Below are positions 534-762 of a stretch of DNA of 64,000 nt, in pieces. The notes below the pieces were generated by a model. The model did no database searches. It was given only the letters and a program-made list of their open reading frames with translations, and was not told the origin of the DNA. A program made the position numbers and the translations under genes. Numbering within the stretch: position 1 is the first letter of the stretch; every line of letters starts with the position of its first letter. The DNA lies in the NCBI RefSeq assembly GCF_054482595.1, contig NZ_CM137008.1; one strand, written 5' to 3'.

Positions 534-762
534 AGTATTAACCTTCATCAATGTTTTTACCCGAGAGGGCTGGGGTGAGGCTTTTCCCTCACCCAAACCC
601 TCTCCATGTGGAGAGGGGCCGCGCCGGATGCGGCGTAAACGCCTTATCCGGCCTACAAGAACGTGCAAATTCAACAAATTGTGATGCATCCTGTAGGCCT
701 GATAAGCGTAGCGCATTAGGCAATTAGCCCCACCTTCTCCATGTGGAGAGGGTGGGATTGGA
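534..762. repeat. REP/BIME-type palindromic cluster in the mtlA-mtlD intergenic region
   Basis: Two oppositely oriented REP-like units (ggatgcggcgtaaacgccttatccggcctaca; tgtaggcctgataagcgtagcgcattaggc) bracketed by two copies of the palindrome tctccatgtggaga and a further gggtgagg...cctcaccc hairpin. Confidence 0.75.

Follow-up and report, generated by a model that had tools for sequence, protein, structure and literature searches.

The mtlA-mtlD spacer of Escherichia coli combines a conserved BoxC-type core, a BIME-1 and a duplicated hairpin

What kind of element fills the gap between mtlA and mtlD: one unusually elaborate repeat, or several repeats of different origin? Positions 534-762 of the window (the whole stretch of 64,000 nt that was analyzed, which is E. 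coli DNA) form a 229-nt spacer between two minus-strand genes that carry the same names, mtlA and mtlD, in the RefSeq annotation of matching genomes; the K-12 spacer is also 229 nt long. A sequence-only reading had described the spacer as a composite palindromic element within an operon, more elaborate than a REP pair, in which two inverted REP units are bracketed by two copies of one palindrome and accompanied by a further hairpin. All of its palindromes are present in 534-762, with coordinates off by a few bases at most, but the spacer consists of three layers of different age, not of one elaborate REP element. The surrounding genes supply the frame:

763-2676, minus strand: mtlA coding sequence, a 637-aa ORF (ORF list and RefSeq annotation)
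763-765, minus strand: mtlA stop codon, TAA (ORF list and RefSeq annotation)
534-559, minus strand: mtlD translation initiation region, with the Shine-Dalgarno sequence GAAGG at 542-546
531-533, minus strand: mtlD start codon; mtlD begins at 533

Scanning 450-850 for promoters, and both of its strands for terminators, returned no sigma-70-like promoter and no intrinsic terminator, and a GC-rich hairpin followed by a U tract occurs nowhere in this interval. The spacer is thus presumably transcribed within mtlADR, in keeping with the operon placement proposed earlier. The annotation of NC_000913.3 has no repeat features around mtl and can neither confirm nor deny a REP annotation there, and a search of the literature on REPs in the mtl operon brought up no relevant paper.

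The two inverted REPs could be located precisely, as the outer parts of a three-part unit:

623-657, plus strand: Y-type REP, GCCGGATGCGGCGTAAACGCCTTATCCGGCCTAC on the plus strand; RNA hairpin of -21.1 kcal/mol
658-691, no strand: L linker, 34 nt, with an IHF-consensus-like site, ATTCAACAAATTG, at 669-681
692-721, minus strand: Z1-type REP, GCCUAAUGCGCUACGCUUAUCAGGCCUACA on the transcript strand; aligns with other BIME-1 copies

A BIME-1 is defined as a single-copy combination of y and z1 with a long conserved L linker that often holds an IHF site (PMC3333891, also our source for the z1/y nomenclature and for the definition of BIME-2). Judged by its sequence, 623-721 is a standard BIME-1: single copy, with Y and Z1 REPs inverted around a long conserved linker, in which the candidate IHF site matches the consensus WATCAANNNNTTR at 12 of 13 positions. 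Positions 623-726 are about 90% identical to the BIME-1 copies in the fliC-fliA and livF-ugpB spacers, both of which keep the linker. These alignments end at TGCCGGATG on one side and at GGCAATT on the other, which places the bracketing palindromes outside the BIME. We therefore ruled out the palindromes as parts of a BIME unit, the fliC-fliA and livF-ugpB copies having no such flanks and 556-621 being single-copy. The mtl BIME differs from other members of its class (RIB/RIP) in lying inside an operon between 21-nt direct repeats that come from a neighboring element, and in having 101-nt BIME-2 units added to it in about 18% of genomes. Rfam searches (E-value mode on 300-1000, gathering mode on the whole window) gave no family that covers the spacer element. 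A partial match of 597-653, minus strand, to naRNA4 (RF02564, a REP325-derived RNA) reflects REP similarity; its 39.1 bits fall short of the gathering score of 59.5, and the spacer is therefore no member of that family. Elsewhere in the window, a second perfect Y-type REP lies at 21326-21359 on the minus strand.

The palindromes on the mtlD side belong to a different kind of element:

560-617, minus strand: BoxC/PIT/TMECO-type double hairpin (the core), ~27 nt before the mtlD start codon
598-617, minus strand: P1, first core hairpin, CCCUCUCC ACAU GGAGAGGG; -15.8 kcal/mol
573-594, minus strand: P2, second core hairpin, GGGUGAGG GAAAAG CCUCACCC; -16.3 kcal/mol
560-569, minus strand: distal arm, CCCUCUC(GGG), complementary to GAGAGGG of P1

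The published BoxC/PIT/TMECO consensus is CCCTCNCCC N3-6 GGGNGAGGG N3 GGGNGAGGG (PMC4666352). The transcript strand from 617 down to 586 follows this motif order, reading CCCTCTCC ACAT GGAGAGGG TTT GGGTGAGGG, and the last of these motifs, which is the 5' arm of P2, is the third-strand motif of the consensus (PMC4666352). P2, with arms GGGTGAGG/CCTCACCC at 573-580 and 587-594, is the gggtgagg/cctcaccc hairpin of the sequence-only reading. The type-A-like unit is followed by an inverted, type-B-like CCTCACCC CAG CCCTCTC that is cut before its own terminal hairpin, and the distal arm is, on sequence grounds, a remnant of an inverted type-B BoxC unit. Pairs of a type A and an inverted type B unit occur at 5 of 18 K-12 loci (PMC4666352), and the mtl core resembles these five pairs in its motif order and in being intergenic; the K-12 hrpB-mrcB pair has the same layout. 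MG1655 has 23 listed elements (Holder et al. 2015, PMC4666352), and the mtl copy is absent from this list and its supplement.

We examined the wider distribution of the core by scanning genomes with the MtlD N-terminus and extracting all mtlA-mtlD spacers from the best 80 loci, which represent about 25 genera, all Enterobacteriaceae; structure and motif counts refer to a spacer set of 81 sequences. A MtlD protein search aimed beyond the Enterobacteriaceae returned close relatives only. The core is present in 80 of 80 loci at a fixed position ~27 nt before the mtlD start codon, in the shared form CCCTCTCCC-loop-GGGAGAGGG-TTA-GGGTGAGGG-loop-CCTCACCC-CAG-CCCTCTCGGG, followed by a ribosome-binding region of ~27 nt and ATG. 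The AAGG and ATG of the initiation region are invariant in all 81 sequences. Many genera have a spacer of 94-110 nt, hardly more than the core, and most carry the core without any REP. A P1 hairpin of 7-14 bp occurs in every one of the 81 spacers, with 44 loop variants. The length of the P2 loop depends on the genus (6 to 27 nt), but the stems do not change. Over the 76 non-Escherichia loci the core arms (42 columns) are 93.4% identical to the window, against 51.3% for four-fold sites of mtlD (MtlD protein identity is 90%), and the core exceeds the four-fold sites in 76 of 76. These alignments indicate that the core is under strong sequence-level constraint.

Such orthologous conservation is not general among BoxC copies: three other lineages lack the control copy that we compared, from the single K-12 locus pstA-pstB, in their orthologous spacers (47 nt in a Klebsiella-cluster contig, 45 nt in Cedecea, and a REP only in Salmonella). 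A fixed position in one operon and 93% identity where synonymous sites are saturated argue for a sequence-specific function of the mtl copy. Besides being orthologously kept across genera, as the pstA-pstB copy is not, the mtl core departs from the BoxC family in several respects. Its arms in E. coli are 8 bp rather than 9, so that the window copy is one base pair per arm short of the strict TMECO pattern (26 of the 81 mtl cores fit the strict pattern and 53 a relaxed one). Its B unit is truncated after CCCTCTC, the inter-unit spacer is short, and the gatcggtc 5' flank of K-12 type-A copies is lacking. BoxC is a multicopy, dispersed family, but the 66-nt mtl version (556-621) is single-copy in 5405 genomes (blastn, E up to 10; median of 1 place per genome) and has only short motifs in common with it.

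The palindrome on the mtlA side is a younger copy of the one in the core, and forms the third structure of the spacer:

729-756, minus strand: hpX, 13-bp hairpin CCCACCCUCUCCA/UGGAGAAGGUGGG with one C.A mismatch

The REP pair is bracketed as first described, in that the 14-mer TCTCCATGTGGAGA occurs exactly at 601-614 and 736-749. It has two sites only in the 64-kb window, versus 0.2 expected at up to 2 mismatches; being below BLAST significance, it was checked in the window and the fetched loci. The surrounding 21-nt direct repeat (597-617 and 732-752) is identical at 20 of 21 positions, one copy being held by P1 and the other by hpX, which begins 7 nt past the mtlA stop and has a folding energy of -20.4 kcal/mol. 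Among the 80 loci hpX is restricted to Escherichia (E. coli, E. albertii and representatives of two more species), and its sequence identifies it as an Escherichia-specific duplicate of P1, the BIME thus lying between 21-nt direct repeats. Copies of hpX are more alike among themselves than to P1, which makes the duplication older than the split of these Escherichia lineages. The single element ending in two palindromes thereby comes apart: other BIME-1 copies have no such flanks, the mtlD-side palindrome and the gggtgagg hairpin form a separate, older BoxC/TMECO-like element that is free of REPs in most genera, and the mtlA-side palindrome is a local duplicate of the mtlD-side one.

That the two 14-mers are identical is a property of the allele in the window. 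The K-12 copy on the mtlD side is tctccgtgaggaga (plus strand), and among the P1 loops observed (ACAT, TCAC, TTAC, TCAT) the window strain has, on the transcript strand, the ACAT that is also the hpX loop, where K-12 and O157:H7 have TCAC. At least 99% identity to the window over 556-621 was found in only 449 of 5405 genomes. The shared loop may reflect gene conversion between the repeat copies.

Spacer length is polymorphic within E. coli. Allele shares come from RefSeq complete genomes, a biased sample (n = 5426), and from a spread sample of 60 rows:

229-nt allele (window, K-12): ~64% (3484 of 5426 genomes have 80% or more of this form; 38 of 60 spread rows)
Expanded alleles of 318, 419 or 520 nt: ~18% (11 of 60 spread rows; 4486 minus 3484 genomes)
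94-nt allele (O157:H7 and others): ~17% (10 of 60 spread rows)

The expanded alleles repeat a 101-nt Y-S-Z2 unit, a BIME-2, present in strain FAH in 3.3 copies with a 98% match. The 94-nt allele reads TAA TCCAATCCTA CCCTCTCC TCAC GGAGAGGG TTT GGGTGAGGG and onward, and equals the long allele without one 21-nt repeat copy and all inter-repeat DNA, leaving a single repeat and no BIME. E. albertii and two other Escherichia representatives also have the long form. Since outgroup genera have a single P1 and the sampled Escherichia lineages the long form, we infer an insertion plus duplication in the Escherichia ancestor and a later excision. This probable direction (insertion with duplication, then repeat-mediated excision) is read from the phylogenetic distribution only, and the reverse is possible. 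The polymorphism in presence and copy number shows that neither the BIME nor hpX is essential, and both may be neutral. One route by which BIMEs are lost is documented here by the 21-bp repeats on either side of the element and the deletion allele that matches them.

In other genera the mtlA-side part of the spacer is variable, being occupied by genus-specific REPs, other GC-rich hairpins, an ERIC-like insert or extra BoxC-like units. Even so, 76 of the 81 spacers have a hairpin of -9 kcal/mol or stronger that begins no more than 10 nt from the mtlA stop. These hairpins are unrelated in sequence, which suggests that either a 3' hairpin is selected for or insertions favor this place. Three spacers of 220-229 nt (L011, L012 and L069) share an insert of ~125 nt with GTGAATCCCCAGGAGCGTACAT and AAGTACGTGACTGGGGTGAGCG, each one mismatch from the ERIC1R and ERIC2 primer sequences; by this near-match, some Citrobacter and related genomes presumably have an ERIC element in the mtlA-mtlD gap. 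Extra inverted TMECO-like units (CCCTCACCCC..CCCTCTCCCC..GGAGAGGGAG) adjoin the mtlA stop in L018 (1223-1395) and in the 5' spacer part of L070, L078 and L081, and Enterobacter sp. kpr-6 has four such units of ~43 nt in tandem. In some genera, then, local multiplication of BoxC-like units seems to occur.

The spacer exceeds a plain REP pair, as first claimed, in having BoxC-type hairpins and hpX besides the BIME-1, and its predicted fold is very stable: the transcript strand reaches -107.5 kcal/mol versus -71.4 +/- 4.9 for 200 shuffles (z = -7.3), none of which was as stable. There is thus a stable structure, and there are palindromes beyond those of a standard REP. The minimum-energy fold of the full spacer joins hpX to P1 by pairing across the BIME, an arrangement that would favor repeat slippage. 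Within the core, GAGAGGG of P1 has two partners: the 5' CCCTCTCC arm, which yields P1 and P2, or the distal CCCTCTC arm, which yields an alternative long hairpin of 18 bp (563-580 with 587-604) of which P2 is a part. In 80 distinct sequences, 93.3% of the cells of the long hairpin are paired, versus 33-57% in slid controls; the hairpin is recovered by the RNAalifold consensus and has four pairs changed on both sides, mostly in a 3-nt linker (TTC/GAA, CCA/TGG, TTG/CAG). The two core folds are nearly isoenergetic in the window (-40.3 vs -38.8 kcal/mol), the gap averaging -0.5 +/- 2.2 kcal/mol over the 81 sequences. Most core pairs barely vary, so the constraint falls largely on primary sequence and the covariation support is thin. 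Pairing evidence cannot tell RNA hairpins from DNA cruciforms. We dropped the strand asymmetry of wobble pairs as a means of separating RNA from DNA structure because its signal was too weak (outside the linker, 29 G.U versus 6 A.C cells, which are phylogenetically non-independent). A G-quadruplex (four G3 tracts, loops of 1-7 nt) was rejected as a conserved feature, being found in only 40 of 81 spacers and in none from Escherichia, Citrobacter or Salmonella.

What might such a spacer do? We lean, by a modest measure, toward a layered composite of BoxC core, BIME-1 and hpX that acts as an exonuclease barrier and a partial attenuator of read-through. Its oldest layer (560-617) would be an ancient type-A-like unit on the transcript strand followed by the truncated, inverted type-B-like unit; to this the Escherichia lineage would have added the BIME-1 (623-721) and, probably in the same event, the copy of the first BoxC hairpin (729-756). 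Recombination or slippage between the 21-bp repeats would then account for the ~17% of E. coli genomes that have lost hpX and the BIME, and amplification of BIME-2 units for the ~18% that have expanded alleles. Transcribed as part of the mtlADR mRNA, the spacer is predicted to fold into five local stem-loops or one giant hairpin, which most likely blocks 3'-to-5' exonucleases and partly attenuates read-through. The mtlA segment would thus be protected and the output of mtlD-mtlR lowered relative to mtlA, with the amount of BIME tuning the ratio. The BIME and hpX would be dispensable modulators, and the conserved core would have an additional, sequence-specific role tied to mtlD expression.

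Known systems make the differential mtlA/mtlD mRNA stability suggested by the sequence-only reading plausible. Newbury and colleagues reportedly described, in 1987, REP stabilizers within operons, malE-malF being an example. Stable stem-loops without a U tract define exonuclease-protected mRNA 3' ends in E. coli (PMC6061677), and the introduction of PMC3333891 credits REPs and BIMEs with stabilizing the mRNA upstream of them and with attenuating transcription, and names IHF, Pol I and gyrase as proteins that they bind. The mtl spacer is like the malE-malF REP and the stem-loops at Rho-dependent 3' ends (PMC6061677) in having GC-rich stem-loops without a U tract directly after the upstream cistron, for which the expected effect would be a block to PNPase and RNase II; it differs in being far larger, at -107.5 kcal/mol. 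Weighing against the preferred reading, published work found neither promoter nor terminator activity for PIT/BoxC elements and no triplex in vivo (PMC4666352), and a Term-seq supplement lists no 3' end within the mtlA-mtlD spacer, the likely reason for the latter being that the operon was not induced. Liang, Rudd and Deutscher are said to have found, in 2015, that REPs at most 15 nt from a stop codon can cut translation of the upstream gene. By their distance from the stop, hpX (7 nt) or, in the short allele, P1 (10 nt) could have a similar effect on mtlA translation.

Another account, which we hold to be possible but distinctly less probable, treats hpX and the BIME, perhaps along with the rest of the architecture, as neutral or selfish palindromic DNA that accumulates in a permissive gap, with incidental effects on expression. 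The absence of hpX and the BIME from ~17% of E. coli genomes and the variable BIME copy number in ~18% fit it, as does the filling of the gap by unrelated elements in other genera (genus-specific REPs, the ERIC-like insert, extra BoxC-like units), and variability of BIMEs between strains is a known property of the family (PMC3333891). It leaves unexplained, however, a core that is 93% identical against 51% at synonymous sites, and the recurrence of a hairpin so close to the mtlA stop (10 nt at most, 76 of the 81 spacers) suggests selection or a strong insertion bias. Very improbable by comparison, and largely refuted, is the idea that the two palindromes are terminal repeats of one mobile, MITE-like composite carrying the REP pair. 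A 21-nt repeat does flank the pair (each copy being palindromic, the repeat is both direct and inverted) and one allele resembles an empty site, but 556-621 is single-copy in 5405 genomes, other BIME-1 copies have no such flanks, the 14-mer has no further site in the window, and the mtlD-side copy is part of an element found in ~25 genera without any REP.

The core leaves room for other readings. It might act as DNA, through an intrastrand purine-motif triplex, a cruciform or a sequence-specific protein site, which we consider doubtful. TMECO oligonucleotides form stable triplexes in vitro, and the Y-R-R order of motifs along the non-template strand agrees with the class II triplex as published, yet neither in vivo nor in duplex DNA did a triplex signal appear (all PMC4666352). 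The primary sequence is constrained above pairing, 5 of 18 pairs never varying and compensatory changes being few, which suits a DNA-level role, but the third-strand motif is GGTTGAGG in Citrobacter and Salmonella (10 of 81 sequences), weakening the triplex, and the CCTCACCC arm and the distal CCCTCTC arm, needed by the hairpins and not by a triplex, are equally conserved. Less probable still is a bistable RNA switch that alternates between P1 plus P2 and the long hairpin and tunes mtlD translation or processing via a factor. The near-equal energies of the two folds in 81 sequences, the conservation of both pyrimidine partners of GAGAGGG and the covarying linker triplets (TTC/GAA, CCA/TGG, TTG/CAG) are consistent with such a switch; against it, an inverted-repeat BoxC pair gives near-equal energies automatically, the Shine-Dalgarno sequence at 542-546 is free in both folds, and there is no known ligand or factor and no Rfam family. 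More broadly, we put forward as a tentative idea, of about the same low standing as action as DNA, that the core is a conserved sequence-specific cis element (an RNA switch, a processing signal, or a site recognized by a dedicated protein, for which the poorly understood repressor MtlR is a candidate) that sets mtlD-mtlR expression.

We know of no function assigned to BoxC/PIT elements since the 1990s; if the core is such a cis element, this would be the first for the family, and its conservation at mtl offers a concrete place to test BoxC function. REP/BIME and BoxC elements are known kinds. What appears to be unlisted is the mtl BoxC-like copy, its conservation in 80 of 80 loci, the nesting of a BIME between duplicated BoxC hairpins, and the series of three alleles. 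For the preferred exonuclease barrier and attenuator, this natural allelic series of E. coli (94, 229 and 318-520 nt) is ready material for relating REP/BIME content to the ratio of transporter to enzyme. If expression is unaffected, the locus is merely a hotspot of accumulating palindromic repeats.

Several minor observations concern other loci and other parts of the window. The K-12 pstA-pstB spacer (L095, NC_000913.3 3908367-3908548) holds a 67-nt block with BoxC copy #19, flanked by a direct repeat of CACGGTT; this heptamer forms the 3' end of pstA, and the orthologues from the Klebsiella cluster, Cedecea and Salmonella have only one copy of it. The repeat resembles a target-site duplication, a sequence hint from one locus that BoxC units can insert in a MITE-like manner. 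Two MtlD entries (P0001 and P0002, 465 and 443 aa) exceed the 382-aa query, and PstB entries P0123-P0128 (302-376 aa) exceed their 257-aa query; these look like annotation artefacts, in which the N-terminus is extended through the repeat-rich upstream spacer. Elsewhere in the window, the whole-window scan with Rfam at gathering level gave two matches only:

49114-49265, plus strand, and 49548-49975, minus strand: sok antitoxin RNA and cspA thermoregulator (Rfam gathering scan of the window)
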